64,000 nt of DNA from Chiloscyllium plagiosum (lineage: Eukaryota): contig NC_057733.1 in assembly GCF_004010195.1 (NCBI RefSeq), positions 39,312,668-39,376,667 of the forward strand, in the 5' to 3' direction. Of this stretch, positions 6,061 through 58,419 are shown piece after piece (position 1 is the first letter of the stretch; each line of letters starts with the position of its first letter). The position numbers and the translations under genes were made by a program. The notes beneath the pieces were generated by a model. The model saw nothing but the letters and a program-made list of their open reading frames with translations, did no database searches and was not told where the DNA came from.

Positions 6061-6061
6061 A

Positions 6062-14182: not shown

Positions 14183-14991
14183 TGTGATGATGTTTAATAA
14201 TGTTTTTTGACCTTGGCTTTTTTCAAAAGTGGTTATAAAGACAGAGGTACTGAAATGTCTGGGTGAGAGCCTAATTTAACAATGGCAGGGGAGTGAGTGT
14301 GGTGCTGGAAAAGCACAGCCAGTCAGGCAGCATCCGAGGAGCAGGAGAATCGACATTTTGGGCACAAGCCCTTCTTCAGGAATTGATTCATTAGGAAACA
14401 TTGATTCTCCTGCTCCTTGGATGCTGCCTGATCAGTTGTGCTTTTCCAGCACCATGCTCTCGATTCTGATCTCCAGCATCTGCAGTCCTCGCTTTGTCCC
14501 TTTGGCAGGGAAGTGGCCAGTTCTCCCAGTTCAGGGTTTTTTTTTTCTAGTTTCTTTTAGTTGTAACAGTGAGAAGTTGCTGCAGACCAAAGAAAGGTTC
14601 CAAGCTTCAGCAGATGGTTCCTGAATGGCTTTCTCTCTGAAATCTCTTTAGAAGTTGCTTCCTCCTGCCTGTAAAAATCTGTGTTTGAATTTACTTTTTA
14701 CCAAGGGGAGTATTATAAAATGTTACTGAAATTGGAACAGCTCCTTAGTGAAGTTGCTGTATTGAGTCAGTTGGGTTTTCAAATATTTAGCTTATTCTAA
14801 ATTCTGTTTTCTTTTGTTCATGTTTCAACTGTAGTGTTTAAATAAATTCTGTTTTGCTTAAAGCCGAGTGGTTTGACTAGCTGCAGCATGCCTGGAATAT
14901 CCACTTAACATCTGCCTTTAAAATAAGAAAAACTTAGGGTCTGGGGTACCTTCTTAAAATATTTTGAGGGGGTCTGGCCTGGTCCGTAACA
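14183..14991 (+). mobile_element. Probable LTR followed by a primer-binding-site-like motif
   Basis: TG...CA termini (tgtgatg / cgtaaca), internal AATAAA ~14841, then attgggggctc at 14993-15003 resembling a tRNA-Pro PBS; internal part cut by a CR1 at ~15097. Confidence 0.55.
14296..14502. mobile_element. Short fold-back PLE-derived element with degenerate hammerhead motif, 13-bp TSD
   Basis: Inverted arms ggtgctggaaaagcacagc...gagaatcgac / ttgattctcctgctcc...ttttccagcacc; TSD tggcagggRagtg at 14283-14295 and 14503-14515. Confidence 0.8.
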
Positions 14992-15096
14992 GATTGGGGG
15001 CTCTTGTTAAAATTTATTCTTTAGTTCCAATTTGGGATTAAGGTTGTTGGACTCAAAGGCAGCAAGTGGTAGGTGTTTGTGTCTTTTGTTCCAAGT

Positions 15097-15617
15097 ATCT
15101 GAAGGATGTTGTGAAACTTGAAAGGGTTCAGAAAAGACTTACAAGGATGTTGCCAGGGTTGGAGGATTTGAGCTATAGGGAGAGGCTGAATAGGCTGGGG
15201 CTGTTTTCTCTGGAGCGTTGGAGGCTGAGGAGTGACCTTCTAGAAGTCTACAAAATGATGAGGGGCATGGATCAGGTAAATAGACAAGGTCATTTCCCTG
15301 GGATGGGAGAGTCCAAAACTAGAGCGCATAGGTTTAGTGTGAGAGGGGAAAGATATAAAAGAGACCTAAGGGGCAATTTTTTCACGCAGAGGGTGGTGCG
15401 TGTATGGAATGAGCTGCCAGAGGATGTGGTGGAGGCTAGTACAATCACAACATTTAAAAGGCATCTGGATGGGTATATGAATAGGAAGGGTTTAAAGGGA
15501 TATGGGCCGGGTGCTGGCAAATGGGACTAGATTGGGTTGGGATATCTGGTTGGCATGGACGAGTTGGACCGAAGGGTCTGTTTCCGTGCTGTACATCTCT
15601 ATGATTCTGTGACTCTA
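15097..15617 (+). mobile_element. 5'-truncated HER1-like CR1 3' end
   Basis: ORF 15066-15530 (LERVQKRLTRMLPGL...FFTQRVVRVWNELP); tail ctctatgattctgtgactcta. Confidence 0.95.
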
Positions 15618-15729
15618 AATGTTCTAAAACTTATTTGAAGACTGGGTTAAATATACAAATCTCACATTTATTCTAATTGAACTTGACATGAGAAACGTTT
15701 GTTACAAACCTGCTGCATGACAATAGATA

Positions 15730-15818
15730 ACACTTGAAATACTCAGCAGGTCTGGCAGCATCTGTGGAGAGAAAAGCAGTGTTAAAACTTTGAGTTGAAT
15801 ATGACTTTTCCTTCGGAA
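15730..15818 (-). mobile_element. Single PLE-derived arm, decayed
   Basis: ctcagcaggtctggcagcatctgtggagaga motif shared with 28285, 38833 and 46772 copies. Confidence 0.7.
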
Positions 15819-18289
15819 TATGCATTACCTTGCCTACATTAACTGACGATCTCTTATCTGACTGGGAGCAAATACTTTTGGTTCAAGAGATTGATTGAAT
15901 CAAACTTGTAATCTTTCTGCATGAGGCAGGTAAAGCTTAGAATTTTGCATTTCACCAACAGTATATGTTCGTATAATTTAGTCCCTGTTGTGGTATCAAT
16001 TAAGAATAAGAAACTGTTCAGCCTGTCTTGTTTGAAAACTTGCTTTGCCTAAATAAGTTATACTTGCTGTGGCAGAAGGCATGCTCAATAAGCTATTGGC
16101 AAAGCCATACTGAATGTTTCAAAGATGGCAAAATGGTGACGTTTAACTCCCAAAATACATCAACTTCCATTTAAGAGTAACAGCCAAACTTTCATACTGT
16201 ACTGATTTGAAATGTTTCCCTTTGCTTCATGTTTAACACGGTGAACTTCAGATTTGTTGATAGTAGGCATTCTTGGGTTGATGGTCCACTGGTTGACAAA
16301 AATCTCCATTGCTGTTGGTCCTGGTTTTGTTTTTGATTGTCCATGCCAGAAAAAGGAAAACATAATTCTTCACAGAGTGATTCTGACATTGCTTTATCAG
16401 AAGCCCACAGTTACAATTATAAGCTCATTGCCTGCACTGCCAAGAAATGAGCTCTGCACTTTACTGCAGGCAGCTGTGGATGTGATTGATTCACATCTCA
16501 TAGCTCCAAATATGTTAACAGTGCCTGAAGTAAAGCGTTGAATGTTTTATCAAAGTGCAGTAAAGGAGAAGAGTATAATGTGCGTTTTATTATGTGAGAC
16601 AGGGATATAAGCTGGTATTTTAATTTGGGAACTGGTATGTGAGTGGGATAAGTCATTGAGGTACACGGACATTGACAAAAGGGAAAACTTAATCCACAAT
16701 GTTCCAACCAGGGTCATTTCATGGAGCTCTGCTTTAATCACCTGACAATGTACTTCACTCTCCATTCTTAATAACTGTCGTATGTTTTGCTATCGGAATT
16801 GTTGAATTTTCATAATGTTTAATCATCCAGCATTTGTGGGTGGGTGTGCAAAATTAGAGGGCATGTTCTTGTAATGGATTCACGCCTACTAAATGCTGGA
16901 ATGAGCTGCCCAAACCTTTCCCACTTGGGATCCTGAACAGCTGCAAGAGAGAGTTCAGTCCGTTTGGGTTGCATTCAAATCAAGCTGCAGGGGTGAAAGG
17001 ACAGTGTGATTGCTTAGTGCACCAGCCACTCTACACGAAAGCTGTAAAAAGCTGAAAACGAATCTGCATAAGTAAGAGGCGGCCAACACCAGAAAACATA
17101 AGATATGAAAAGAACCATACTCAGGCCTACACAGCTTCTACGTCGCACAATCAGGCTCAGAATTTGACCTTTTTGAAATGTTTGTTACAGACTTTAAATG
17201 GATACCACGTGCCTCTGTTTCGGGGTATAAAGTTCTGTGCCACAAGAGAGGATGAAAACGTCTAAAGTGCAATTAATTGATTTCTCAGCCTCTTTGAACA
17301 TCAAGCTAAGATAAGCATCAGCCCTTGCAGATGCTAAAGTGGTGCCTGACAACTGCTTTAAGTCTTGCTCTTTCAAGTTGGAAATTCAGTTACCTTGAGC
17401 AGGGCAGGCAGCAGATATGTTCAATCTTTTCAGGTGTGGATGCCATCAGTGACTCCAGCAAAGAGGCAGTTACTTTTGATTTAGAAATAATAATTTAGCA
17501 GGAGCAGGAGTCCTTCAATAGCTTTTTCCTGCATTCAATGGCCTCTCCCTATTCCTCCGCCTCCACCCCACCTGGTACTTACTTCCCTAAGGATGACGAC
17601 CAATAAGGCATGTTGTCTCTCTCACACCAATAGTTCTTGTTACTAGTCATCCCTCATACAACTTGGAAAGAAGTCTAGACAATTGCTCCAGCCCATTCGA
17701 TCCATATAATATACTGTTCACCCATTTCAGTGGAGCCAAATATGCTGTCCTTTGAATGTGTCATTCTTATATGAGTGCTTACATCCTGTTAAAATGATTT
17801 CTTGAAAAATAAATTGAACTTCCCAATGATCTGTAGTACTGTGATATCATTGCTTTATGAAACATGTCTCCTCATCAAAATATGATGTTGTGTTGGAAGG
17901 GAATTTAAAATTAGTACAACTCCAAGTTGTTTGCATCATAGTTGTTCACGTCAAAGCTTTTTGCTGCTCTTGTTGCAAAGAAGCTGCTATTGTGTTTTCT
18001 GACAAGCTTTTCAACTAAAACTCCAATCAGAAAGAATCCCTTTCATCCTTAGATATTTCATACATCACATAATATAGCAGGGAAATTACAATTGGACATT
18101 TGAGAGCCACATGGCATTTGGTTGTACTGCCTGTCTCTGTTATTCTACTAAATGTTTCTAAATCATTCAAAATGATCAATATTTCTAAAATAGTGGAAAG
18201 AAGCATTTGAGACTATTGTGTTAAAGTTAGTCCATCAGTATTGTGGCAAAAAGAAGTGTAAGACTGATTAGGGACTAAAAGGAGTCTTT

Positions 18290-22139: not shown

Positions 22140-22360
22140 CATCAGTACTTTGCAGCAGAAGACTCAGAATAATAATCAAGAGCAGGAACTCTTGCTTGTT
22201 TTGCTCCACTCTTCAAAGTCGGGGGCACTGATGTTTACTGTAGATTTCTTACTGCGCCATGAATGGAATTAATATACTCAGCATTCAGCAGGGATTTAGT
22301 TTGAAAACTTCATTATCTACATCACACCAATGCATCCAGTCATTGAACCAATAAAGATGC
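22140..22360 (-). mobile_element. Ancient SINE-like relic (similar to 35150-35335)
   Basis: Loose shared blocks atcaagagcaggaac / gggcactga / actcagca. Confidence 0.35.
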
Positions 22361-24575: not shown

Positions 24576-24853
24576 ATTATGGTAGCTCCCAGAGTACCTG
24601 GGGCAGCCTTTTAAGATGTGGTTCTGATAATCAAAGATGACTCGCACATTGATGGAACGGAATCCTTTTCTATTGATGAACTCAGCTGTGTCATGATATA
24701 ACCCATTCACTGTGACTTGTGGCCAGTGTATTGTACTCTGCAGCTGGGGAAAATCAGCTTCATTCGGCAAAGTCTACAGCCTGGGCTGTAGCACTGACTC
24801 GGTCATGGGGGATTGAGAAGGGGTGTGATCTGACACAAACAACATCGGTGACA

Positions 24854-25016
24854 TTGGATGTAGATTTGCTCGCTGAGCTGGAAGGTTCATTTCCAGATGT
24901 TTCGTTACCCTACTAGGTAACATCTTCAGCCTGAGGCCCACTAAAGATGTCACCCAGTAGGATAACGAAACGTCTGGAAATGAACCTTCCAGCTCAGCGA
25001 GCAAACCTACATCCAA
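24854..25016. mobile_element. Palindromic PLE-derived element with a hammerhead-like motif on each strand
   Basis: ~76-bp inverted arms; plus: ccaCTAAAGA tgtcaccc..ggataac GAAACGTC tgg; minus: CTGAAGA tgttacc tagta gggtaac GAAACATC tgg. Confidence 0.85.
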
Positions 25017-26558
25017 AAGCTTCAGTGACAGCTTGATGCATATGTGGATGTATGACTGAAGCATCCAACACAGGTCCTCAGTAGCTCCTTGGAAGGAATC
25101 ACGTGCGTAAATGTCATCTTGACAGCCACGTGGATAAGATGCCCATTCACTCCTTTATTATTGACCCTGTAGTCTGTCCCGGCACAGTCCTGAGACATCC
25201 TCAACCTGCAGTGGCACTATGCCTCACTGATTTGGAGGAAATAGCATTGAGGATTAAAGACTCTGGGTCTTCTACATATCCTGTCCATCCTGAGGGGGAC
25301 TTCAGCTTGCATCTCTTCGTGTGGAGGCTGTTCAGCAGCCACTGGAGGTTGTTACTCCTCCTGGACTTGCTGGAAGAGTATGTTGGAGAATACTTATGGT
25401 TGAGGGTGAGGGGATCGCATCTTACGTCTATGCTCCTGTGCAGTGTATTAGATTTTTTATTAGCTTTGCACTTTGAGATGACTATCTTCAATCAACTATG
25501 ATGAATGACATGGTCAAGATGTTGGGACAAAAAGAAACCACTGACTCCATCTACTCTGGATGCGGTTGCAGTCATTTTCCATTTGTAATTCGCATTTAGG
25601 AATCACATGAATATGGGAGGCAATGCAAATTGTCCTGGGCACCATGAGTCTTCAGGTCAGCCTGGTAAACAAGGGAACCCTGACCTTCCACCTCCTTTTC
25701 TTCCTAGCAAACGCATTATGACTGATCCCCTACATGTTCCCACACACCACCTTGAATTACAACTACCACTCTCATCCTTACCTGGAAACTCTGTCCCTAC
25801 AGTGTCATTCTGCTCACTATCATGTCCCACCCTCATACCCTCGAGGCCATTGTGTCAATCACCTCTGTTAAAATCCCCCCACACAATATCTCAGGGCTTC
25901 CCATGCACTGTCTCCCCCCTTATATGTATAATTTACCTCCTTCATCTTCCTTGTTCCCTCTGCATCCCAATATGCTGCCTCCAAACCCCAGCTTTGAGTA
26001 CATCTACTTCCTGACCACAGCAGTTTCCTCTTATAATCCCCATTTGACTTTCATTCCACTGACTCTCAGCTTCTGTCTTTGGCCCACCCTCTGACTGACT
26101 TGAATGGTCAGTGTTGACTGCGGATTAACTTGACAGCAGGAGATGCCATTGACTGACTGCGCTTGGATCTCCTGACTGACAGTAGCTTCCCTTGACTAGA
26201 CTAAGGATTAACCCCCTTCAACATGGAGTCATGGCCTTTTGGTTGATGCATATGTAGTGTGGTTGCGGTACAAGATGCTGACAGACTGTGGGTGTGACAT
26301 TAATGTAACACAGTGCATTTGGCAACAATGACATCCTGTTGACAACCATGATGACGTGTCTGGTTTTGTGACTGTGTTCAACAACAAAGCAAGACAGAAG
26401 TAATGTGAGCCTTTAAGGTGTGGCTGAGGAGCTAAAATAGCAGTCTGCAAGGCAAGGCAGGGAAGCTGTGAACATTGAAGTGGACACAAAGTTGGTGACC
26501 TTAAAGAGAGTGAGTGAGCAACCCTGAGGTGCTGCCTGGTCCAATCCATGAAGTGGTT

Positions 26559-28159: not shown

Positions 28160-29015
28160 CACCATAAGAAGTAGGAACAGGAAGAGGTTGTTTGGCTCTT
28201 TGAACCGACTCTGCCATTCAATAGGATCATGGCTGATCTGATACTCCTCAGGTCCAATTTCTTGCCCTTTCCCCATAATACTTGCAAAAATAGAGATTGT
28301 TGGAAAAGCTCAGCAGGTCCGGCAGCATCTGGGGAGAGAAATGAGAGTTAATGTTTCGGTTTAAAGGAGCCTGCCTCAGAATCCCATAATAGTTGATTCT
28401 CTTACAGGTCAAGAACCTATCTCACTGTTAAATTTACACAAGGAGTCAGCCCCCTTAGATCTCAGTGTGTAAAGACTCAAAATTCCTGCTCATCTCAGTG
28501 TTAAATGTATACCCCTTAATTCTGAGATGATGCCCTCTGATTTAAGACTGTTCCACGAGGAGAAATATTCTCTCAAGTCCCCGAACAATCCACTTTGTAT
28601 CAATGAGATCAACTCCCATTTTTCTAAACTCAGTGAATAGAGTCCCAACCTGTTTAGCTTTTGCTCATAATAAAATTCTTCCATACCAAGGATCATCTGA
28701 GTGAACCTTCTCTGAACTGCTTCCAATTAAATAATATATTTCCTTAAGTAAGGGATCAAAACAGCTCACAGTACTCCAGACGTCACCTCACCAGCAGCAG
28801 TTGCAGTAAGACTTCCCCACTCTTATGCTTGAAATAAGGACCAACATTCCATTAGCTTCCTGACTATCTGCTGCCCCTATGGGCTGGCTTTCTGTTTTGT
28901 GCGCAAGGACCCTCAAGCTCCTTTGTGTTGCAGCTTTCTGGAGTTTTTCTCCATGCAAGAAACACTCTGTTCTGTTGTCCTCCCTTCTAAAATCAACAAG
29001 TTCATATATTTTCAT
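28160..29015 (-). mobile_element. Old CR1 3' portion
   Basis: ORF 28490-28726 EAVQRRFTQMILGM; reverse tail accataagaagtaggaacagga. Confidence 0.85.
28285..28382 (-). mobile_element. Single PLE-derived arm with 13-bp TSD
   Basis: ggaaaagctcagcaggtccggcagcatct...gttaatgtttcgg; TSD cccataataSttg at 28272-28284 and 28383-28395. Confidence 0.8.
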
Positions 29016-29020
29016 TCATA

Positions 29021-29338
29021 ATTAGATTAGATTAGATTACTTACAGTGTGGAAACAGGCCCTTCGGCCCAACAAGTCCACACCGCCCCGCCTAAGCGCAG
29101 CCCACCCATACCCCTACATTTACCCCTTACCTAACACTACGGGCAATTTAGCATGGCCAATTCAACTGACTTGCACATCTTTGGACGGTAGGAGGAAACC
29201 GGAGCACCCAGAGGAAACCCATGCAGACACGGGGAGAATGGGCAAACTCCACACAGTCAGTTGCCTGAGGCAGGAATTGAACCCGGGTCTCTGGCGCTGT
29301 GAGGCAGCAGTGCTAACCACTGTGCCACCGTGCCACCC
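29021..29338 (-). mobile_element. HE1-like SINE, full length
   Basis: (attag)n reverse tail, gaattgaacccggg B box, head tgtgccaccgtgccaccc. Confidence 0.95.
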
Positions 29339-29625
29339 ATGAGCATAATATGATGCTGATCCATGCAAATAAGACTTTCATTGCTCATGAACGGGAATCT
29401 CATCTTGCTTTTCAATACTTGGCTGGAAAATGAGATTTTATTTTGCTCCTGATGTTGAGAAGCTCCTCATTGGCCACTGACATGGCTTTATCTGTTTCCT
29501 TGCCATGGCCCTTATCATTCAGGGACGGCAAGATTCTGCTTCATGTGTTCTAACTGATAATGTACATTTTCACTATTATGAAAAGAATAGAACTATAAAA
29601 TCCATTAAAAGGTTGCGCAGAAATG

Positions 29626-29947
29626 CGGCACGGTGGCACTGATGGGTGGCACAGTGGTTAGCACTGCTGCGTCACAGCTCCAGAGACCCGGGTTCAATTC
29701 CCACCTCAGGCAACTCTCTGTGTGGAGTTTGCATATTCTCCCCGTGTCTGCATGGGTTTCCTCCGGGCGCTCCGATTTCCTCCCACAATCCAAAAAAATG
29801 TGCAGGTTAGGTGAATTGGCCATGCTAAATTGCCCGTAGTATTAGGTGAAGGGGTAAATGTAGGGAAATGGGTCTGGGTGGATTGCGGTTTGGTGTGGAC
29901 TTGTTGGGCCAAAGGGCCTGTTTCCACACTGTAAGTAGTCTAATCTA
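29626..29947 (+). mobile_element. HE1-like SINE with partly duplicated head
   Basis: ggcacggtggcactgatgggtggcacagtggttagc; tail ctaatcta; possible TSD aaatgc (29621-29626, 29948-29953). Confidence 0.95.
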
Positions 29948-31045: not shown

Positions 31046-31687
31046 TTTCCCTTTGGGACATCTTAATGTTGTGAAAATTGCTCAGTATAAGTTGTTCTTT
31101 TCAAAGTTGTAAAGAGATAATTATATAACTGAGAAGAACGAGAACACCAGACGGTTCTCTACCTCTTCCTCCCCACTCTTCAACAAGGTTACATGAGCTG
31201 ACTTCGCTTTAAAAATAGTACAACCACAAGATACTAATGTCTGAGTAAATATTTTACTTTGCCACTGTGGAATTTCATCAGCATCATTACAGTGTAGGGA
31301 GGTGAATGTTTTCAGCATTTCATCTTGCGTTGGAAGATTTTTCTATTTCACTGAGAAATTCTTTAAATATTTTATATCTATGTATTGTAAGACAAGGTGA
31401 CAAGGGGGAACTAGCTCCTCTCTTTTTAAACCCATCTTGATGGATAACAGCAGTCCTTTCATTTACTTTCGCATGAAGCTATTTCACATGTCAATTAGGT
31501 TTGTAGTTAACTAGATCAAAATGAATTACAAGGTGTTTTTGAGTGAAAGGAAGAGGAATTTTGTTACTTACTAACTCTTAGATAAATAATAAAAGCATGA
31601 CTTTAAACACATCCATGACATAGGTTATGAGTTGTAAAGCTTGACTATCTTACAGATAGGAAGAATAAAGGCTACACAGTTTAAAAG

Positions 31688-31929
31688 AAAACTAAAATAA
31701 AACAAAGAACTGTGAACACTGCAAATCTGAACCAAAATCAGAGATTGTTGGCAAAACTCAACAGGATTGGCAGTTGGTCACTGGAGTCGAAACATTAAAT
31801 CTGCTTTCTTCCCTCAGATGCTGTCAGACCTGTTGAGCTTCACGAGGGAAGAAAACAGATTTAGTGTTTCGACTCTGGTGACCAGCTGCCAATCCTGCTG
31901 AGTTTTGCCAACAATTTCTGATTTTGTTG
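31688..31929. mobile_element. PLE-derived element refolded into an 83-bp inverted repeat, 14-bp TSD
   Basis: Arms 31733-31815 and 31844-31926 (7 mismatches); TSD acacagtttaaaag at 31674-31687 and 31930-31943. Confidence 0.88.
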
Positions 31930-32081
31930 ACACAGTTTAAAAGTCTTTAGTCGATATTAGTCTTTAGTCTTTAGCCTTAGACTATAGTTATTTATTTGTT
32001 GATTGGTATCCTCAGCAATGGTGAAGCTAATAGATATCTCTGAATTTTCACTGAATGGTTATTTCCCCAATATCATCAAGT

Positions 32082-39312: not shown

Positions 39313-39485
39313 CCCAATCCCTCTACACAGCCAATCCCCAGCAAGATAGTCTTATGGCTTTCTGTTTCTTCCTTGAAAAAAGGCTTGCACAGTCTCCATC
39401 ACCAAGACCACTCTCCTTCACCTGGCTGAGCTCGTTTGCACTTTGAAGAGCTTCTCCTTTAACTCATCCAATTAGAAAAAGGAGA

Positions 39486-39582
39486 CAGTTCTGATGAAGA
39501 GTCCTGCCAGACTCAAAATGTGAACTTTGCTTCTCTCTCCACAGATGCTGTCAGCCCTGCTGAGTTTCTCCAGCATTCTCTG
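39486..39582 (+). mobile_element. PLE-derived arm starting at a degenerate hammerhead
   Basis: gttCTGATGA a gagtc ctgcca gactc aaaatgtg aac, then acagatgctgtcagccctgctgagtttctccagca. Confidence 0.75.
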
Positions 39583-42470: not shown

Positions 42471-42602
42471 GTTGGAAGGTGCGAGAGTGGCCTAGTGTCA
42501 ACCATGTGAGAAGCAACTAATAAGAATTTTAAAAAGCAGACAGTTTTTCCCAGTTAAAAATCACACAACACCAGGTTATAATCCACCAGGTTTAATTGGA
42601 AG

Positions 42603-42637
42603 CACTAGCTTTCAGAGTGCTGCTCCTTCATCAGGTG
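42603..42637 (-). ncRNA. Minimal hammerhead ribozyme motif in the inverted pLTR
   Basis: Reverse: cac CTGATGA a ggag cagca ctct GAAAG CTA gtg; helix I CAC/GTG; palindromic helix III AGCT. Confidence 0.7.
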
Positions 42638-42925
42638 GTTGTGGAATACACAATTGTAAGACACAGAATCTATAGCAGAAGTCTACAGCGTGATGTAACT
42701 GAAATTATGCATTCAAAAATACCTTTATTGTTTGTTAAGTCTCTCATTTGTTAGAATGACCATGTTAGTTTCACTTCTTTCATATGTAAATCGCAAAATT
42801 TTTTGTGTGTGTGCGCGCGCACGCGCCCAAGGTCTCGATTGAGACCATGCCTATGGGTTCCGAACTTAGCTATCTGAATTAAACTGCCCAACTTTCATGA
42901 CAATTCCTTATAACCCTGTCACGGT

Positions 42926-43335
42926 TTGTGTTGCAAGACGTGTCAGAGTGTGGACATGGATACCACCATTACGCATGGGGACACCTCCCACCTTGTACGT
43001 GGCTGGTACTCATGCGACTCAGCCAACGTTGTCTATCTCATACACTGCAGGAAAGGATGCCCTGAGGCATGGTACATTGGTGAAACCGAGCAGAGGCTAT
43101 GGCAATGGATGAATGGGCACCGTACAACAATCAACAGACAGGAGTGTCCCCTCCCAGTTGGAGAACACTTCAACTGTCCAGGACATTCAACCTTGGACCT
43201 TCGGGTGACCATCCTCCAAGACGGACTTTGGTCAGGCAGCAGTGAAAAGTGACCGAGCAGAAGCTGATAGCTAGGTTTGGTACCCATAGGGATGGCCTCA
43301 GCCGGGACCTTGGGTTCATGTCACACTACAGGTGA
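42926..43335 (+). pseudogene. Penelope-type GIY-YIG endonuclease domain, frameshifted
   Basis: CKTC...YSCDSANVVYLIHCRKGCPEAWYIGET...MNGHR...VGEHF, then EQKLIARFGTHRDGLSRDLGFMSHYR-stop in another frame. Confidence 0.9.
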
Positions 43336-43735
43336 CCCCATTACTCACACACTCACACATATGTTTGTGGGGTGATTTTGTACTTGCAGAGTTACATTGT
43401 ACTTTGCTCAAAAACTGCATGAATCCATGTAAGATTCTGTTAATTCATTTTTTAGATTAGAATCAGTCTAAACATTATGGCACAGATAGCAGCACACAGG
43501 GGGCTAACACCTTCAACACTATCTGGGCTGACACCAATTGTTAAAGTTCACCTGAGAATGTAACTTTTTAAAAAAAGGTTTTGTGATTTACACATGAAAG
43601 AAGTGAAACTGACATGGTCATTCTAACAAATGAGAGACTTAACAAACAATCAAGATATTTTTCAATGTATAATTTCAGTTACATCACACTGTAAACATTT
43701 GCTATAATTTTTTTTGCAACTGTGTACTCCACAAC

Positions 43736-43770
43736 CACCTGATGAAGGAGCAGTGCTCCGAAAACTAGTG
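43736..43770 (+). ncRNA. Minimal hammerhead ribozyme motif in the sense pLTR
   Basis: cac CTGATGA a ggagc agt gctcc GAAAA CTA gtg; perfect 5-bp helix II; one helix III substitution. Confidence 0.7.
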
Positions 43771-43995
43771 CTTCCAAATAAACCCATTGGACCATAACCT
43801 AGTGTTGTGTGATTTTTAACTTTGTATACCCCAATCCAACACCAGCATCTCCTAATCTTTTTTTTCCCAGAATTTAAAAAATAAAAGCTTAAAAGGTTCA
43901 ATCATTCTTTAAAATTCTGTCCGATTCCATCGAAAAGGAAACTCAAGGTTAGTCTCTGGACTGCACATGGTTTCTACAAAGACAAATTCACACTG

Positions 43996-44295: not shown

Positions 44296-44784
44296 GAAAA
44301 AGTTTTTAAAAAAGCATGAATCAGTATTTCGTCCTTGAGTAGAACTACTGTTTATTACAAATATGTAGATTCTAGCTACAGGTAAACAATGATGAACTGT
44401 TGACATATAACTCCACTAGGTATAACTTTAATCCGCTTATAACTTCCCCTACACACACATTACAGACAAAAAAAAAAATGGTGTTGTGGCTGGAGGGAAA
44501 ATTTGAGAAAGCGGTTCATTGGTCCCAATGCAAAAGGTTTGCTGGGATGATCATTTTGACTTGTCAGGACATGCTGTTCATTGATCTCTCTCTTTTCCAT
44601 TTACTTTCATTTGCTTGCAGAGGGCACAAGGTAATTGATTCACTATTTATAAAGTTTCTGTGTTTAGCAAAAAGCAACAACTTACAACAACTGGTAAGGA
44701 AATTTCTTTTTTCAGGCTATGGGTGCTTTTTTAGTACAGAGAAAAGGACACCACCTACTTTTCCAGAGAATCAATATTTTCTGG

Positions 44785-44890
44785 GCAAAGTTAAAAATTG
44801 CACAACACCAGGTTATAATCCAACTGGTTTATTTGGAGGTGAATCTTTACCTTTTTACCTTTGTCCACCCCAATCCAACACCTCCAAATC
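44785..44890. mobile_element. Very short PLE pLTR remnant with a 16-bp flanking duplication
   Basis: aagttaaaaattgcacaacaccaggttataatcc matches the 42553 end; ccccaatccaacacc matches ~43830; aatcaatattttctgg at 44769-44784 and 44887-44902. Confidence 0.8.
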
Positions 44891-46684
44891 AATATTTTCT
44901 GGCTATCTCATTCACCCCCCAAGGAGTCAATCACATTATTGTTGACTGAGAGAAGGCCTTTGTCATTTTCATCAGGTCATCGATTCCCTCAGCCAATCAT
45001 TTATTTGCTGCTGATGGAATCTCATTTTGTACACACTCCCTGATGCCAATTCATCTGCAACTAAACATCCCTCATTGGTTGAAAGAAGACAGTGTAGACA
45101 ACACTTACAGTAATTTGCTTTTGACAGTGTAGCAATTCCTTCAAGTATCCTTGGTTTTCAAATAGTCCTTTTTCTATTTCAGTTCACAATCAAAAAGAGA
45201 GAAAAATGAAAAGATATGCTCTTTATAAGTGCCACCATCAAGGAAGCTGCATTGAAGAGTTTAGAAGTCTTTCCATTCTTTGATAGAGTTGGCTTGCCAA
45301 TCCCTACCATACAGCACGGATTCATCATACAGAGAATGCTTTAGTCATGCCGTTATTTCTATCGCAAACAGAATTCAATGGTTTATATTGGTGAGCTAGC
45401 CTTAATAATAGTCTTAGCTGAATACATTTTATATTGTTGCTTCTGAAGTGCATTAATGTTGTGTATGCATGTTATGAGTTTGAAATCTTGTGTGCCAATT
45501 CACTTTTCCTTGCCTTTCCTAAGATGGTCTATTTTAAATATTTATTGCTTATAGTTTATTTACAAAGCTGGGGTTACATAGAGAGGTTAAAATTTGCCCT
45601 TCCTTTAGTTCAAATGTCTAGCATATTTATTTTCCTACTGCAACTGGCAACAAATCTCAGGAGGAAGACAGTAGAATCAAAAATGTGAATACAGCATAAG
45701 CATTATTAAGGAAATAGTCTATAAATAGACTTTCAGAAGACACACTGCATTGTTGAAGCATCAAATTGAGCAATGCTAAATCAACAATTAGAACAATAAA
45801 AGAAAGAAGTCCAGAAGTTTGAAGCCATAAGAAATAGACTTGTATAATCTCCCCCTAGTTACTATACATTGGAGGAATTGTGTGCTGTAGTAATATTCCT
45901 ACCTCTAAATCAGAAACTTCAGAACATGATACTCATAAAGCTGTATTCATGAGCATAGGTGGCCAAAAAGATAGAGTATCAAGTTTATTGTGATCCAAGC
46001 TGATGATAATACTGGACAAATCAGATCCCAGAATGAAACCTTACAAGATACATCACATGTTTAATTTTTGCAATTGGTAACCATAACAGTTAGTCCTGAA
46101 ACATATTCACATGTGTTGCAAAAGAACATCAGCAGCCACATCATAACACTATGACAAAAGTAAGAAAAAAGACATAATACATAGATGTATAATAGTTAGA
46201 AAGACCTTATCACAAAGAGCAAAATTTCAACCTGTTTCCTAACACTATTCCTTTCCAGATGCTGAGTTCCAGAAAAATAATCATTCCTACCTCAGTTCTT
46301 CATATTTTGACTTTCTCCAGTCTCCTGTCTTGGACTATAGACATTATTTTGCAATCCCTTTTTGAGTCAGGAAGCATGAATCTTTCATAAATCTGATGGC
46401 CAAAACTTTTGTCACTTCTAATACCTTAAAGGTTTCTATCCAAACTCTTCATAAACTAGATACCACTTCTGTTAAGGTGACTTCTTCTGAACTGAACAAA
46501 AAAGCTTTGTTCTCCTGTTGCTGGGAGAAATAAAAACTGTTCTCTTCTGAACTAAACTCTGGTTTCTTCTGAACTGCAACTTTGAATTTCTGATCTAAAG
46601 CTGAAAAACTAAACTAATTGCCTTGATATATTTACACTACGAGTCGTAAATTCAACATTTTATCCCACACACATCTTTTTATAT

Positions 46685-47285
46685 TCATTCATTGGATGTG
46701 GGCATCACTAGCTTGGCTGGCATTTATTGCCCATCCCTAACAGCCCAAAGCATAATTAAGAGTCAACCACAGGAATTGCTGAAGAAACTCAGCAGGTCTG
46801 ACAGTATCAGTGGAGGGGGTGGAAAACCCTTCCCCAAATCCTATCTTCAGCATTTATGGCTTCATTACCTGGCTACTATCAGTTTTGAAGAAGGGTCATT
46901 AGACTGACGATATTAACTCTGCTTTCTCCCCAAAAATGCTGTCAGACCTCTTAAGTTTCTCCAGCAATTTCTATTTTTGTTTCATTTTTCCAACAACCGC
47001 AGTTTGTTTTATTTCACTATAAGAGTCAACCACATTGCTGTGGATCTGGAGTCACATGTAGACCAGACAGGTAAGGATAGAAGATGACCTTCCTAAAAGA
47101 CATTAGTGAACTACATGGGTTTTTACAGCAATCGGCAATTATTACACAGTTGTCCAGCTCTTTATTCCAAATTTTATTGAATTCAAATGTTACCACCTGC
47201 CTTGGTGGGATTTGAACTCATGTCTCCAGATCATCTGTTTGGTGTTCTAGACTACTAACCCAGTGACATTTCCAATACATCACTA
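46685..47285 (-). mobile_element. tRNA-derived SINE (second family) interrupted by a PLE element
   Basis: gcatttattgcccatccctaa tail, taagagtcaaccacattgctgtgg core, ggatttgaactcatgtc B box. Confidence 0.85.
46772..47019. mobile_element. Fold-back PLE-derived element with perfect 15-bp TSD
   Basis: TSD taagagtcaaccaca at 46757-46771 and 47020-47034; inverted arms gaaactcagcaggtctgacag / ctgtcagacctcttaagtttc. Confidence 0.85.
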
Positions 47286-51180: not shown

Positions 51181-51485
51181 GATTAGATTAGATTCCTTGC
51201 AGTGTGGAAACAGGCCCTTCGGCCCAACAAGTCCACACCGATCCTCTGACGAGCAACCCAACCAGACCCATTCCCCTGCACCTAATACTATGGGCAATTT
51301 AGCATGGCCAATTCACCTAATCTGCACATCTTTGGACTGTGGGAGGAAACCAGAGCACCCGGAGGAAACCCACACAGACACGGGGAGAATGTGCAAACTC
51401 CACACAGACAGTTGCCTGAGGCGGGAATTGAACCCGGGTCCCTGGCACTGTGAGGCAGCAATGCTAACCACTGTGCCATCGTGCT
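51181..51485 (-). mobile_element. HE1-like SINE
   Basis: (gatta)n reverse tail, gtggaaacaggcccttcggcccaac, gggaattgaacccggg. Confidence 0.95.
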
Positions 51486-51554
51486 GTCGTTTCCTGAAGT
51501 TGTAAGTGCTAAGTAAGATACCTGTATGAGTTTGGTAACATTGTGTAGATAAGT

Positions 51555-51740
51555 ATTTAAGTTAGTTTGCTGAGCTGGAAGATTTATTTTCAGATGTTTT
51601 GTCACCATACTTAGGTAATATGATCAATGAGAGTCTCCAGTGAAGCGCTGGTGGTGAGTCCCGTCTCTCTATTTATAGGTCTTGGGTTTCTTAAGGTGGA
51701 TGATGTCATTTCCAGTTTTTTTTTCAAGGGAAGGGAGATA
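51555..51740 (-). mobile_element. PLE pLTR fragment related to the 24854 element
   Basis: gctgagctggaagatttattttcagatgttttgtcaccatacttaggtaa aligns with 24872-24920. Confidence 0.75.
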
Positions 51741-53463
51741 TTTTGTAGATAACAGTAAGAGGATTCTTATCATCTGAGAGCCCTTCATCCTTATGATTTA
51801 GTGAATCAAACAATAGTTTAAAATTCAACCAAAGTACAAAGTACTTGTGTAGTTTAAAATATACCTTCTACAATTTTGAAGCAAATCAAGATTCTGGGGT
51901 TCCAACAAAAGGATGATTTTTGAGGTGAAATACTTCATTTCACTGTACATCTATTTTAATTTTATTCAGAGGTTCCTCATGAACAATGACAGTCAGCACA
52001 GTAGCAGCAACAGACTAACCTGTTACCACAGCAATGGTATTGGCTCAGTAATAAACAAGATGGCAGCAAGTTGATTTTTCTCAATTTCTTTTGATACATT
52101 TCAAGTGGTGCAATCGGCTTTCAGCTGCACTTTCAAAGCACTTTGAAAAAAAATTGCAAGGATTCCAGCTGACAAGCATTTTTTTGATATTGACCTTCTT
52201 TGGAAGTAGAGTTCTTTTGTTTGCAATTATACCACATTATTTTAATTGTGTGTTTTAACCTTGCAGTATTGATCAGGAGGCTATTTTGATTCTTTCCCCA
52301 TCAGTTTTGTCAGTGTTCCCCTCAAGGCATTTGATACTTGTTAGAAATAGTTACATGGATGATAATTATCTTCTGTTGGCTTACTCTGGAGGCCAGTATA
52401 AGAAATGCTGGTAAGCATTTACAGGCTAATTTGACAACAATAACTTTGGAATTTATCCTGATCACTGCTTCATTAAACATTCCCACAAATGTACTTTTAA
52501 ATGAACAGGGTTGCTGGTTCCAACCAACAGTGGGAACCTTGGTCACTTTTATTCTTGCTGACCCAGGATTACTAAGGCTAATTGGACCATTCCAATCACT
52601 GCACTGTGGTGGTTAGCTGGGGATCATAGACTGAAACATTTCTGGGCGTTATATCTCAACAACTCTCTGAATAAATCCACATAGCCATCTGGTAAGCTGA
52701 TTTTCCAGATGTAATCTGTTCCTGAATGGATTTAGTACACAATATTTGCGATAAGAGTTGTATGGTTGCAATGGCCAGTACATTTGATTTGCTTTTCTAA
52801 CAATTGTGTCAGCTACTTCACCAGTGTAATATCCTGACAAGAAAGCTCAGATAATTAGACTCCGGCTGCTGTGAACCTCTGTTTGAAGTTTGTTCATGTT
52901 TATTGTTGGGCTGAATATTTAAAATAAATCATGTTGATGCTTTATTGAACTGCATCTGTTACATGTGTTCTTCATTCAAAGAATGCAATACAGCTGTGAA
53001 ATGACATTGATTACACAAAGAAGCAAAAAAAGGTCGAGTAAACGTAAATACCATGTTAGGTTAATACCATCCTGTAGTCATTTTGTTCAAACCTGTGGAG
53101 TTTAATGTTAGTGAAAGGGTTAATCTGACAGAATCTGTCTTAAATGGTTGATTAGACTAAGCTGAGGGCTTCAGAATCCATGGTACACCAGTTTAAATCT
53201 CCTCTGTATCAGGATTATAGGGGTACAGATGAGAGCATGCTTATTCTATTCATCGCGCCAATGACCGCACGTAGTTTTGAAAGGACCAAGAACGCTTACT
53301 GAATTTAGAATTTCACTTACTCTAAAGTCTCTTATAGCATGAGTGAGCCTAAGATATTTCTCATTATATTTCATGATCTAAATGCTTTAACTTCAGATGT
53401 CACTGTTGCAAAATTCTGATCACAGCACTACAATTCAAGTAAGAAACCCCACTAGTTATTTTC

Positions 53464-55366
53464 AGACAATAGACAATAGACAATAGACAATAGGTGCAGG
53501 AGTAGGCCATTCTGCCCTTCGAGCCTGCAGCACCATTCAATATGATCATGGCTGATCATCCTTAATCAGTATCCTGTTCCTGCCTTATCTCCATAACCCT
53601 TGATTCCACTATCCTTGAGAGCTCTATCCAACTATTTCTTAAATTAATCCAGAGACTTGGCCTCCACAGCCCTCTGGGGAAGAGCATTCCACACAGCCAC
53701 CACTCTCTGGGTGAAGAAGTTTCTCCTCATCTCTGTCCTAAATGGTCTACTCTGTACTTTTAAGCTGTGACCTCTGGTTCGGCACTCACTCATCAGCGGA
53801 AACATATTTCCTGCCTCCAGAGTGTCCAAACCTTTAATAATCTTATATGTCTCAATCAAATCCCCTCTCAGTCTTCCAAACTCAAGGGTATACAAGCCCC
53901 GTCGCTCCAGTCTTTTAGTGTAAGGTAATCCCGCCATTCCAGGAATTGACCTCGTGTATCTACGCTGCACTCCCTCAATAGCCAGAATGTCTTTCCTCAA
54001 ATTTGGAGACCAGAACTGCACACAGTACTCCAGGTGCGGTCTCACCAGGGCCCTGTACAGCTGCAGAAGCACCTCTTTGCTTCTATACTCAATCCCTCTT
54101 GTTATGAAGGCCAGCATGCTATTAGCCTTCTTCACTACCTGCTGTACCCACATGCCTACCTTCATTGACTGGTGTACAAGAACACCCAGATCTCTCTGTA
54201 CTGCCCCTTTGCCTAAATTGATTCAATTTAGGTAGTAATCTGCCTTCCTGTTCTTGCCACCAAAGTGGATAACCACACATTTATCCACATTAAACTGCAT
54301 CTGCCATGCACTCACCTAACCTGTCCAGGTCACCCTGTAATCTCCTAACATCCTCATCACATTTCACCCTGCCACCCAGCTTTGTATCATAAGCAAATTT
54401 GACCTCCTATGTCGGACTTTATCAAAAGCTTTCTGAATGTCCAGGTACACTACATCTACTGGATCTCCCTCGTCCATCTTCAGAGTTACATCCTCAAAAA
54501 ATTCCAGAAGATTAGTCAAGCATGATTTCCCCTTCATAAATCCATGCTGACTCTGACCTATCCTGTTACTACTATCCAGATGTGTCATACTTTCATCCTT
54601 TATAATAGACTCCAGCATCTTTCCCACCACTGAGATCAGACTAACTGGTCTATAATTTCCTGCTCTCTCTCTCCCACCTTCTTAAAAAGTGGCATAACAT
54701 TAGCCACCCTCCAATCCACAGGAACTGATCCCGAATCTATTAAACTCTGGAAAATAATCACCAACATATCCACGATTTCTCGAGCCACCTCCTTCAGAAC
54801 CCTGGGATGTAGACCATCAGGCCCCGGGGACTTATCAACCTTCAGACCTAACAGTCTCTCCAACACCAATTCCTGGCAATTATAAATTCCCTTAAATTCA
54901 GGTCCTTCAGGCACTGTTACCTCAGGGAGATTGCTTGTGTCTTCCCCAGTGAACACAGATCTGAAGTACCAATTCAATTCTTCTGCCATTTTTTTGTTCC
55001 CCGTAATATATTCCCCTGTTTCTGTCTTCAAGGGCCCAATTTTAGTCTTCACCATTTTTTTGCTTTTCACATACCTAAAAAAGCTTTTACTATCCTCCTT
55101 TATATTATTGGCCAGTTTACCTTTGTACCTCATTTTTTCTCTGTGTATTTCCTTCTTAGTAATCCTCTGTTGTTCTTTAAAAGCTTCCCAGTTCTTCGTT
55201 TTCCCACTTACCTTTGCTATGTTATACTTTTTCTCTTTTAACTTTATATGTTTCTTAACTTTCCTCGTCAGCCATGGCCACCCCTGCCTCCTCCTAGGAT
55301 CTTTCTTCCTTTTTGGAATGAACTGATCCTGCAACTTTTGCATTATACACAGAAATATCCGCCATT
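53464..55366 (-). mobile_element. CR1 LINE, (agacaat)n-tail subfamily, with internal RT deletion
   Basis: ORFs 54636-55343 (KSPGPDGLHPRVLKE), 54364-54630 (QHGFMKGKSCLTNLLEFFE, KAFDKV), 53644-54165; KAFDKV region jumps straight to KFAYDTK at ~54402. Confidence 0.95.
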
Positions 55367-56548
55367 GTTCAAAATGGAAAATTGCTTTTTCATAGGAAAG
55401 CAGTTAATCATTTTACAGTTTGTGTGTTTAAGAAGGAAGATCATTGTGGTATCGCAAAGTATAATATTGGATACATTGTTTTTAAATAAAACTGATATCA
55501 TTCTGACTCACATTTGTCCAGTGCTTATAAAAATAAACCACTGGTTGTGTCCGATCAGAAATAATTGGTTTGGGTGTATGTCGCTCTGTAATTCTACTAC
55601 TTTCCACACCTGTTATGTAAAAGAGAACAACACCACATTCATTTTTTCCTTCTTGCTTCAGAGTAAGATATTTCACCCATCTCACATATTTCACACTGAC
55701 ATCAAAAGATGCATATCTTGCCACAACCAAACCAACCCGCGAAATAGAATGGTTATATTTTAAAACATACAGAACACTTTTTGATCACACATGTGTCATT
55801 GCTAAAGCTCTGATTCCTGTAAACACACAAAGTCATGTATGAGTATTGTGTATACACCTCAAAAGTCTTTTTCTCCCCCTTGAAATAAAAACAGTTTATA
55901 TCTTGTCCTCTCCCCAAAAATATTAAAACCATACTGGTAAAAGGGTAAAATCGGATCACTTTGATCAACCAGTTTGGCATTGCACGACAGCAAATCATTA
56001 AAGTAGGACCACTGTTGTTTTGAGTGAGGCATGCAGCCATGATGCCAAACAAAGAGAAGCAAAGAGGAGTTATAAGCATAGACTGGAGACAATATAAAGA
56101 GGTGTCCTAAAGTCTTCTGTGACCACATAAAAAGCAAAAGCATAGTAAAAAGAAGAATAGGGCCAATTAGAGACCAAAATGAGAATTTACATCTGGAGGC
56201 AAGGCTGACGTTTAAAGGAATATTTTTCATCTTTCTCTAAGGAAGAAAGATATGCGATCCAGGATTTTGTGACAGAGGAAGGAACTCAATCAGTAGAATG
56301 GTTCAACAATGGCAGGCAGAAGAGTTGGGTAGACAGTTAGTACCTAAACATGATAAGGCACCAGTAACAGATGAGATACACCCAAGAAGGTGAAAGTGGA
56401 GATTGTAAAGGCACTGGCCACAATCTTTCAGTCTTCCCAAGACTTAGTTGAGGTGCAAGTAGGTTAGAAAACTGCAAACATTAAAGCTTTATTCAAGAAA
56501 TATTGTAAGGATAAGCTTGACAATTACAGGCCATTCAGTTTAACTTCA

Positions 56549-56780
56549 ATAAAACCAAAAGAAGTGTGGATGTTGTAAATCAGAAACGAAAATAGAAATT
56601 GCTGGAAAAGTTTAACAGTAGCTGTGAAGAGAAATCAGTTATCATTTTGGGTCCAATGACCCTTCCTCAGAAGCATGAGGAACTCTGAGAAAGGGTCACT
56701 GAACCCAAAATGCTAACTCTGATTTCTCTTCACAAGTGCTGCCGGACATGCTGAGCTTTTCCAGCAATTTCTGTTTTTGC
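56549..56780. mobile_element. Fold-back PLE-derived element with two degenerate hammerheads and perfect 15-bp TSD
   Basis: TSD ttcagtttaacttca at 56534-56548 and 56781-56795; ttttgggtccaatgacccttcctcag / ctgagaaagggtcactgaacccaaaa inverted. Confidence 0.85.
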
Positions 56781-57789
56781 TTCAGTTTAACTTCAGTGTT
56801 GGGGAAGCCCCAGGGATAATTATTCAGGAGAGAATTAGTAGCTAAAACAGAAAAAACTGTGGATTGATTAGGAAGTGACAGTGTGGGCATCTAAATGGGT
56901 TATCATGTTTGGCTAACTTGCTGGAGTTCTTTGAAGAAGTAACAAAAAGGCTTGGCGAGGGTAACAATGATCTGATGCACATGAACGTCCAAAGGTCTTT
57001 GATACACTGTCACACAACAGACTTGTGAGGCAAGTTATAAGTCATGGAATAAAAAGGTCAGTACCAACATGGATTCAAATTATCTGACTGATAGGAAACA
57101 GACTGTGATGGTCAATGGACATTTTTTTGTGTTGGAGGTACAGTTGTAATGGAGTTTCCCTGTGTTTGGTACTGGGGCCCTCACTTTTCCTGATGTATGT
57201 TAATGATCCAGATTTTGGTCTGCAGGGGTTATAATGAATATTTGTAGAAGACACAAAATTCAGAAGCATTGTAATCTAATCAGAGGACAGCATACAGCTG
57301 CAGAAAGTCATCGACATGTTGGTGGAGTGGGCAGACTGATGACGGATGAGTATCAATGCAGAGAAGTGTGTGGTGATGAGGTAGGAAAGACATTATAAAA
57401 TAGGTGGTACAATTCTAAGGTGGGGGGGGGGTGTGTAGGAGCAGGCAGGTCTAGATGTAGTTCATTTGAAAGTGATTGGGCAGGTACAGAAAGCAGTGAC
57501 TAAAGTATACAGTATCCTCAACATTATCAATAGGAGCAGAGAATATAAGAGCATGGAAATAATGTTGAACTTGTAAAAGGCATTTACTAGACCTCAGTTG
57601 GAGCATTATGTGCACGCACCACATTATATGAAAAAATGTAAATGTATCGGTGAGAGAGCAGAAGCAGTTCACAAGAATGGTTCCATGAGTAAGAAACTTC
57701 AGTTATGAAGATAAATCAAAGAAGTTGCGATGGTTCTCCTTAGAGTGAAGAAGGCTAAGAAGAGATCTGATATACATGTTCAAAATTAT

Positions 57790-58035
57790 AGTTGAAAAAT
57801 ATGGTGCTGGAAATGCCTCTTGAATGCCTCAGTTGAATCTGCCCTCACTAGTTCAGGTAGCATTTGAGGAGCAGTAGAGTTGTCATTTTGGGCATAAACT
57901 CTTCATCAGGAATGGCTTATGCCTGAAACATTGATTCTCCTGCTCCTAAAATGCTGCCTGACCTGCTGTCCTTTTCCAGCACCACAGTCTCGACTCGGAC
58001 TCTCTGGCGTCTGCAGTCCCCACTTTCTCCCAGTT
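57790..58035. mobile_element. Fold-back PLE-derived element with ~11-bp TSD and an internal foreign patch
   Basis: TSD ttcaaaatYat at 57779-57789 and 58036-58046; same family as the 14296 element. Confidence 0.8.
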
Positions 58036-58419
58036 TTCAAAATCATGACTGAGCTGGATAGAGTAAATAGGAAGAAACTGTTCCCATTCGTTAAAGGAAC
58101 AGGAATAGGAGGGCATTGTGATCTGCAAAAGAAGCAAGGATAAAATGGGGAAAAACATTTTCACTCAGCAAGTAGCGTCTCCAATACACAGTCCAGAAAT
58201 TTAGTGAGGGCAGATTCAACTGAGGCTTTCAAGAGGGTATTGGGTGCTTATCGGAATAAAAATAATTTGCAAGGTTATGGGGGAAATACAAGAGATTGCT
58301 ACCAAAAGATGGTGCTCATTTAACAAGACGAAGTAGGTATGATGGGCCAAATGGCCTCCTTCGGCACCATAACAATTCTATGACACTGTGACTCTGTGAA
58401 AGTGACTTTCCAGTTCAGG

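Follow-up and report, generated by a model that had tools for sequence, protein, structure and literature searches.

The accessible portions of the relevant papers describe several systems close to the elements reported here. Complex insertions of EN+ Penelope-like elements (PLEs), known from Penelope/Poseidon and Neptune, comprise a pseudo-LTR (pLTR), an adjacent inverted and 5'-truncated copy, a 30-40-bp tail at one end and a TSD (PMC8557442, PMC3846280). The minimal hammerheads (min-HHRs) of metazoan PLEs occur as dispersed single and dual motifs, the dual ones on opposite strands and 100-700 bp apart, and were ascribed to truncated PLEs (Cervera and De la Pena 2014, PMC4209133). For Poseidon of Anolis carolinensis (PAc), Frangieh et al. 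(2024, PMC11167929) describe cutting and extension of both strands, a predicted dimer, and a pair of RT start sites that lie 3' of the hammerhead and delimit the tail. Animal non-LTR retrozymes are head-to-tail tandem repeats with canonical hammerheads and circular RNAs (PMC7229834).

We analyzed a window of 64,000 nucleotides of the Chiloscyllium plagiosum genome over which short stubs are scattered, each unit reproducing the published layout of a PLE insertion in miniature. With EN+ PLE insertions the stubs share the inverted head-to-head copy, the one-sided tail, the TSD and the 5' truncation, and their long copies share an RT followed by a C-terminal GIY-YIG. They differ in that most units are just two ends, in their very large copy number and in a sharp stop zone at the 5' edge of the hammerhead, a feature of which our literature search found no description. 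Core boxes, an extra nucleotide before stem II, a palindromic two-base helix III and a short helix I are common to the stubs and the metazoan PLE min-HHRs, whereas the host lineage and the numbers differ and the hammerhead is here known from sequence. Like animal non-LTR retrozymes, the stubs are short, non-coding and pLTR-related and have a type I hammerhead; unlike them, they occur inverted or singly, have hammerheads of the minimal type and grade into coding PLEs. As to PAc, the derivation of head-to-head units from two-strand priming is our own inference and does not appear in the accessible text of PMC11167929. A supposed link between Eulor5/6 and Penelope proved wrong: Eulor5/6 are Cryptons, and UCON13 alone is classed as Penelope (PMC5753468).

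We interpret these elements as the 5'-truncated ends of four EN+ Penelope-like families, whose hairpins were likely each assembled once, at insertion, when the reverse transcriptase of the element extended both cut strands of the target and the resulting pair of short cDNAs was joined; we give this reading a probability of about 0.6. The identification is based on long copies that code for GIY-YIG, head-to-head geometry, a one-sided tail, a TSD enclosing the whole unit, copy-specific junctions and a pile-up of 5' ends.

The preliminary description had placed about ten short elements of at least four sequence families in the window, most of them head-to-head. All ten were found where stated and sort by sequence into four families, A to D; seven are head-to-head (14296, 24854, 31688, 44785, 46772, 56549 and 57790), and 15730, 28285 and 39486 are single arms. 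Direct repeats of 8-17 bp, with 0-1 mismatch, flank nine of the ten, 39486 being the exception. Below, composite units are given without a strand and arm ends are numbered from the C of CUGA. Lone family A arms without a tail occupy 15717-15820(-) (core strongly decayed, candidate 8-bp TSD), 28272-28395(-) (beginning at about -3, core decayed, TSD of 13 bp with 1 mismatch) and 39484-39595(+) (beginning at about -5, core decayed, flanking repeat of just 7 bp). The family A unit at 31674-31943 has four parts, no CUGA box, an exact 14-bp TSD and an internal +8|+53 inversion junction common to both arms. In the head-to-head A unit at 46755-47028, with an exact TSD of at least 9 bp, a short tail-less arm starts at +41 and the tailed arm extends upstream of the core; both arms of the A unit at 56534-56797 (TSD 17 bp, 1 mismatch) begin at about -2, and one has a tail.

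Family B is represented by the head-to-head units at 14283-14515 and 57779-58046. The former, first noted as 14296, combines a tail-less inverted arm with a decayed core (14295-14384, beginning at about -4) and a tailed arm (14395-14511, beginning at about +20) between TSD copies at 14283-14295 and 14503-14515 (13 bp, 1 mismatch); the latter has a TSD of 11 bp with 1 mismatch, and within its left arm lie 35 nt of nearby DNA copied in inverted orientation (57816-57850). The family C head-to-head unit at 24845-25030 has arms complementary at 92%, a TSD of 9 bp with 1 mismatch, and a hammerhead core on both strands with one break in each. Family D contributes a head-to-head unit at 44769-44902, with arm starts at about +34 and +74, no hammerhead at all and an exact 16-bp TSD, and a 1.3-kb PLE relic at 42551-43862. 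In the relic, a tail-less inverted arm at 42551-42804(-), which holds a hammerhead at 42634(-), is followed by GIY-YIG-type coding at 42914-43252(+) and then by a tailed arm up to 43862. Further arms had been overlooked: an old tailed A arm at 38836-38962(-), a tailed B arm at 39158-39316(+) that begins at about -34 and has one change in helix III, a lone C arm at 51555-51736(-) within 51540-51752(-) that extends to about -112 (TSD 13 bp, 1 mismatch), and a weak one at 11672-11743. As for the host-gene context of the window, Pfam gave no significant match for six long frames, one of which also lacked a PDB match.

Most of the elements had been said to carry an intact or decayed hammerhead motif. 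Decayed cores are indeed present in eight of the ten, the exceptions being 31688, without the CUGA box, and 44785, without the entire motif; by a strict descriptor of the minimal type I hammerhead none of the ten is intact. This descriptor gave 20 matches in 836 kb and none in each of five dinucleotide shuffles, and its sole match in the window is 42634(-), in the inverted arm of the relic. Several of the decayed window copies are broken at CpG positions. Of the checks proposed at the outset, the Rfam search was negative, with no hammerhead match up to E = 5 within the window and microRNA-type hairpin models, below their cut-offs, as the best matches. The search for stem covariation was positive: in 13 family C copies chosen by core pattern, the outer helix I pair is GC in 5, UA in 4, CG in 3 and unpaired in 1, and 93% of cells are paired. 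Helix I thus covaries among family C subfamilies; family B varies little internally. All min-HHR features (CUGANGA, GAAA, NUH, stem II, helix I and the palindromic minimal helix III) are found in the majority sequences of all four families. The hammerhead may be a passenger that is under selection in the source elements and decays in the stub copies; within fold-backs, the long hairpin is predicted to mask it.

The proposal that the elements are ultra-truncated PLE insertions is supported: the arms form a length continuum that, in long copies of each family, extends into that family's own coding sequence. Upstream extension reaches GIY-YIG-type coding in all four families, and RT was seen in B, C and D. 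In Pfam searches, a family D copy matches RVT_1 above the cut-off (E = 5e-9), and a family B copy matches GIY-YIG (E = 0.001) and RVT_1 (E = 0.014), both below it; the B and D proteins are 27% identical over 315 aa (E = 7e-30). Family C yields a GIY-YIG match at E = 0.03 and, in one copy, an RT catalytic-type motif. Family A offers just a decayed GIY-YIG-like C-terminus in two copies, recognized by eye, and the 112-aa GIY-YIG-type piece in the window's 42.9-kb relic had no Pfam match. The long copies, L104 among them, share the stub layout. The 3' ends are fixed, with two end classes in A, B and D and one in C, and the 5' ends vary from about +60 to beyond -500. One locus (L156) fits a partial-tandem pLTR-ORF-pLTR arrangement, its tailed 5' repeat running from -12 and continuing into coding; the remaining candidates for this arrangement are independent insertions or gap-broken. 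The Cys-rich linker between RT and EN serves as a clade criterion (PMC8557442, accessible portion). Cys residues are present in this linker in B and D and were not seen in the C piece, so that B, D and probably A are candidate members of Neptune and C of Penelope/Poseidon, as named from the linker motif.

In a random genome sample of 155 loci (1.50 Mb) we counted 538 arms, which extrapolates to about 1.3 million genome-wide; PLE pieces account for about 7% of the DNA sampled. Neighboring arms are paired head-to-head in 110 cases, in tandem in 11, some of which are overlapping model hits, and tail-to-tail in 4. Of 103 pairs in families A, B and D, 91 have a tail on one arm and none on the other (p ~1e-16 against 0.5); no tail class was resolved in family C. 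Exact flanking repeats of at least 8 nt enclose 58 of 114 units, compared with 2.6 in shuffled pairings, and those of at least 10 nt enclose 36 of 114, compared with 0.16; the TSD varies in length, from about 7 to 18 bp. Junctions are distinct in 97 of 101 units (16/16, 59/62 and 22/23). In most cases a unit measures 85-383 bp and is reduced to two ends. A concealed short second arm lies beside only 6 of 128 apparently single arms; therefore, most singles are truly single.

The 5' ends of the arms are concentrated about 5- to 9-fold at the front edge of the hammerhead. Among family B arms that reach +7, 122 of 177 end between -8 and +7, a rate of 0.073 per nt compared with 0.0085 and 0.0083 in the flanking zones. 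The corresponding figures for family D are 35 of 59 arms, and 0.056 compared with 0.0125 and 0.0085. Family C has a weak peak (6 of 35) that lies off the predicted start, and family A has just two long references for this panel method, its figures being drawn from fold-back units and per-arm ends. Fold-back units require no upstream model; there the 5' end of the longer arm falls between -12 and +7 in 51 of 62 units of family B, 17 of 23 of family D and 12 of 16 of family A. The possibility had been raised that the elements are ordinary PLE ends of random lengths: PLE ends they are, but the distribution of 5' ends makes their lengths non-random. An initiator consensus with A at -4 is found in A and B, and TATA-like boxes lie at -34 (A), -40 (D) and -53 (C), that of B being weak; from such motifs, the RNA start is predicted to lie, likely, near the front edge of the hammerhead. 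In one RNA run, 78 reads support a 5' loose end at -4, more than for any other such end. This run, a single-cell, fragmented poly(A) library, has reads on both strands with no pile-up of starts or ends; no wrap-around joint occurs among the matches listed, in a library type unable to show small circles. A cap-type G is not in excess before ends at -4, with counts of 6 of 32 (B), 8 of 22 (A) and 2 of 4 (D). We rejected a splice acceptor at this zone, such as occurs in D. virilis: the B and D majorities have no AG in common, and there is no shared upstream exon.

Insertion by two-strand extension and joining could proceed as follows. A staggered cut by GIY-YIG would produce the TSDs of about 7-18 bp. 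Each 3'-OH would then serve as primer for a cDNA begun at either of two RT start sites, which lie about 30-45 nt from each other, leaving one arm tailed and the other tail-less, as for the Anolis PLE in vitro. Copying would mostly cover 90-140 nt and stop at the RNA 5' end, which likely lies 4-10 nt ahead of CUGA, giving a strong-stop-like product; longer arms would result from priming in the 3' repeat. Finally, the two cDNA ends would be trimmed and joined via short microhomology or a few extra bases. We suggest tentatively, at a little under even odds, that the stubs record a step of the PLE cycle not yet described: a dimeric protein primes each cut strand from two starts in the 5' pseudo-LTR, runs off at the transcript 5' end, which is the first base of helix I, and the strong-stop-like cDNAs are end-joined with no jump to the 3' repeat. 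In that case the mRNA would open with the hammerhead as its first structure, and RNA cut by it may have been the source of a small class of units.

We may also consider that these are truncated PLE ends whose second arm arose by self-priming, the cDNA folding at a short palindrome and copying itself, and that the pile-up reflects RT stalling at a folded or protein-bound hammerhead. We hold this to be unlikely. Self-priming has been proposed for head-to-head Penelope junctions of Adineta (PMC3846280, accessible portion); microhomology junctions recur genome-wide and, among the matches listed, the arms of a unit mostly have the same subfamily letters. However, if a cDNA made on a sense template folded and copied itself, the tailed arm should be the longer in every pair. 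Among 89 one-tail pairs it is longer in just 28, shorter in 50 (several family B values here are probably alignment artefacts) and equal in 11; therefore, the tailed strand was not simply copied back on itself. Against our main reading, the 28:50 asymmetry (p = 0.017) departs from the even split predicted by full independence of the arms. Many junctions, moreover, leave a loop of 0-1 nt or contain extra bases. The stop zone falls on the 5' strand of helix I, which favors stalling, but stalling is expected on entry from the 3' side of the structure, where the stop rate equals background.

It is improbable that a minority of units were copied from hammerhead-cut RNA, with both arms beginning at or just past the cleavage site. 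In its favor, none of the longer arms of B and D fold-backs has its 5' end between +8 and +28, and 6 of 62 and 3 of 23 end beyond, although two of these six B cases are on inspection internal-deletion artefacts. Genome-wide, 107 family B junctions end at the cleavage position, +28, compared with 15 at +25 (7:1), and in family D, where counts are small, 6 compared with 2. This pile-up did not survive a control matched for microhomology: position +20 gave 83 B junctions, reducing the excess to 1.3:1 (p = 0.09), and the +28 junctions are themselves ambiguous across +28 to +30. The random sample shows no clear peak at the cleavage site (6 of 262, at least one being an internal deletion), and in the accessible text of PMC11167929 cleavage is dispensable in vitro and no RNA ends are reported at the site.

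A non-autonomous, retrozyme-like class, in which short hammerhead elements are transcribed, self-cleave or circularize and are duplicated whole by a PLE protein acting in trans, had been offered as the alternative and is now largely refuted; we regard it as highly improbable. The copy number of about 1.3 million arms, the modal arm size and the helix I covariation in family C would suit it, as would the reported derivation of animal retrozymes from pLTRs (bioRxiv 10.64898/2026.07.22.740005) and the inversion junction shared by the two arms of 31688, as if from an older fold-back. However, only 11 of 125 pairs are tandem, against 110 head-to-head, with no array of more than two among those listed; nearly all junctions are copy-specific, and the recurrent ones span several subfamilies and track microhomology. 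Each family grades into a coding parent of its own, and no window stub has an intact core. The 31688 junction is found nowhere else, matches across it being its own two arms alone. Nor does the 42.9-kb relic qualify as the proposed mover: it belongs to none of the families but D and has the layout of the stubs at greater length, so it is not a shared driver. A MITE-like fold-back DNA element is rejected by the unequal ends, with their one-sided tail, and by a TSD of about 7-18 bp rather than of fixed length.

As a class, the stubs are ordinary PLE ends and not a new self-spreading ribozyme element. PLE pieces being so large a share of the sampled DNA, repeat libraries with short consensus sequences may wrongly class them as SINEs, MITEs or hairpins of microRNA type. 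The stubs are a large fossil data set on how PLEs form inverted repeats, tails and pseudo-LTRs, and they also bear on the role of the weak PLE hammerheads. Predictions that can be tested with the PAc in vitro system and with CAGE data follow from the stop zone, from the rule of one tail per pair and from the statistics of arm length.

All ten short elements of the preliminary description (at 14296, 15730, 24854, 28285, 31688, 39486, 44785, 46772, 56549 and 57790) are present in the window, and iterative profiles seeded from it recovered four sequence families, A to D, in line with the minimum of four proposed there. In each family the majority sequence contains one complete minimal type I hammerhead, with a helix I of 2-4 bp, the CUGANGA box followed by a single additional base, a stem II of 4-6 bp, GAAA, a helix III consisting of a two-base palindrome, and NUH. 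We number positions from the C of CUGANGA, taken as 0. Across the window and 80 random loci, 836 kb in all, a strict descriptor detected 20 minimal hammerheads, versus none in five shuffles. Its sole match in the window, 42634(-), lies inside a long family D relic (42551..43862), and no Rfam hammerhead match was found in the window. Most stubs had been said to carry an intact or decayed motif; decayed motifs are confirmed, but none of the ten passes the strict descriptor and some lack the motif. Among 13 family C copies, a sample biased by being chosen on the core pattern, the outer base pair of helix I is G-C in five, U-A in four, C-G in three and unpaired in one; this variation suggests that the fold was under selection in the source elements.

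The window is also dense in LINEs and SINEs, a repeat content suggestive of a cartilaginous fish. Many decayed LINE fragments, presumably CR1/HER1-like, occupy 1200-8700, 15040-15610, 32000-33320, 35570-36130 and 53640-55400, and an assembly gap of 385 N lies at 32504-32888. An inverted SINE-like pair at 29180-29794 (150-nt arms, 91% complementary), akin to 51271-51484, bears no relation to the stubs.

From the 3.56-Gb genome we drew 155 loci of 10 kb at even spacing, 1.50 Mb once N is excluded, and found 538 arms, which are 5'-truncated ends of Penelope-like elements (PLEs): 133 in A, 278 in B, 40 in C and 87 in D. Extrapolated from this sample, the density of about 360 arms per Mb corresponds to some 1.3 million genome-wide; matches to the four family models cover 7% of sampled bases. 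Same-family neighbours at most 100 nt apart comprise 110 head-to-head, 11 tandem and 4 tail-to-tail pairs. Families A, B and D show two 3'-end classes, about 25-45 nt apart, and the 3' extension, or tail, is found on exactly one arm in 91 of their 103 pairs. Of 114 units, 58 (six of them in the window) are flanked by an exact direct repeat 8 nt or longer, compared with 2.6 in shuffled pairings; since the repeats flank whole units, one hairpin is one insertion. Units measure 85-383 bp, and junctions are distinct in 16/16 A, 59/62 B and 22/23 D units. Pattern counts over two overlapping gap ranges gave 1143 and 3657 B fold-backs (reversed-pattern control, 0), which thus number thousands across the genome. 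Near 7186-7288 of locus L140, a 13-bp duplication encloses a tail-less B arm and, before it, a very short inverted tail-end piece: a fold-back whose second arm is minimal.

In all four families, sequence upstream of some arms is common to other copies and leads into GIY-YIG-type coding. Protein searches with D, B and C each gave at least 150 matches, out of 45,487, 129,045 and 93,772 candidates, respectively; EN-like coding in family A amounts to two decayed stretches. Long D copies contain RT, and a 3.4-kb element (L104) has the layout of the mini-units, its RT-EN frame lying between an inverted arm without a tail and an arm that carries one. B frames are 27% identical to D across 315 aa and match RVT_1 and GIY-YIG weakly. 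One B element close to full length (L156:2418-5892) carries direct repeats, of which the 5' one begins at -12 and passes through the tail into coding. The relic at 42.9 kb, suggested earlier as mover of the stubs, is a 1.3-kb family D unit of the same build and not the driver of the other families.

Arm lengths are non-random. We placed 262 of 278 B, 84 of 87 D and 35 of 40 C arms for 5'-end analysis. Of 177 B arms reaching +7, 122 stop at -8 to +7; the per-nt rate there is 0.073, versus 0.0085 upstream and 0.0083 downstream. The zone holds 35 of the 59 D arms counted in the same way (0.056 per nt versus 0.0125 and 0.0085 on either side), family C shows only a weak peak (6/35), and 28 of 48 A arms from the first 95 loci stop at -10 to -1. 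In fold-backs, the longer arm begins within -12..+7 in 51/62 B, 17/23 D and 12/16 A units. The A and B majorities match an initiator with A at -4, and TATA-type boxes occur as ATAAAA at -34 (A), a weak TATA-like sequence at -37 (B) and TATAAA at -40 (D), the last agreeing with a D peak that begins at -9; TATAAA at -53 in C is without a corresponding peak. In one RNA run (1196 reads on a young B copy), depth rises threefold at -4, where the top-supported 5' loose end lies (78 reads); however, both strands are represented, so that genomic copies within read-through RNA were most likely sampled. A cap-G signal was sought at the 5' ends and none was found.

The absence of longer-arm 5' ends from +8 to +28 prompted a test for ends at the predicted cleavage site. 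There, 107 B junctions end, versus 15 at +25; however, +20, with similar microhomology, has 83 (p 0.09), indicating that the excess is mostly microhomology. In two B copies (L086:4200 and L170:3182), upstream element sequence is fused straight to the predicted cleavage position by internal deletions ending at +28.

How might the hairpins form? Self-priming from a sense template demands that the tailed arm be the longer, which holds in 28 pairs versus 50 with it shorter and 11 equal; this makes it the less likely route. Stop-zone presence is nearly independent between arms (both in the zone in 18 of 55 B pairs; 16.3 expected). For the Poseidon element of Anolis carolinensis, in vitro work describes cutting and extension of both strands, reverse transcription starting at two sites that bound the tail, and a predicted dimer (PMC11167929). 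From these findings and the arm-length counts, the best model is one in which cDNA would be primed on both target strands, copying would reach run-off or an early stop, and the cDNAs would then be united by end-joining. Once transcribed, a fold-back is predicted to adopt a long hairpin (raw energies of -77 to -145 kcal/mol, without shuffle control), which would bury the hammerhead.

Two units in the window have unusual arms. Both arms of 31674-31943 share a single internal inversion junction, +8|+53, with no other occurrence in a genome search; the unit looks as though it was copied from an earlier fold-back or arose when the template was switched repeatedly. In the 57790 unit, the left arm includes 35 nt (57816-57850) that match nearby LINE-like DNA (58202-58236) in inverted orientation at 97%, and this looks like a templated insertion.

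A non-autonomous, retrozyme-like class, one of the two origins first entertained, is unsupported: tandem units define animal retrozymes (PMC7229834; bioRxiv 10.64898/2026.07.22.740005), unlike the stubs here. The other origin, ultra-truncated PLE insertion, is borne out by arms running upstream into GIY-YIG-type coding and by a layout already published for PLEs. Earlier reports describe an inverted truncated copy with the tail on one side (PMC8557442), palindromic head-to-head junctions with target-site duplications (PMC3846280), large inverted repeats of variable size with promoter and intron within the pseudo-LTR (PMC2377424), and minimal hammerheads, dispersed and on opposite strands, from truncated PLEs (PMC4209133). 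In the literature searched (main texts, with few subscription journals), neither the stop zone nor priming on both strands was found described for PLEs. The stubs are real, PLE-derived and of a known kind; their value lies in the mechanistic clues they offer.
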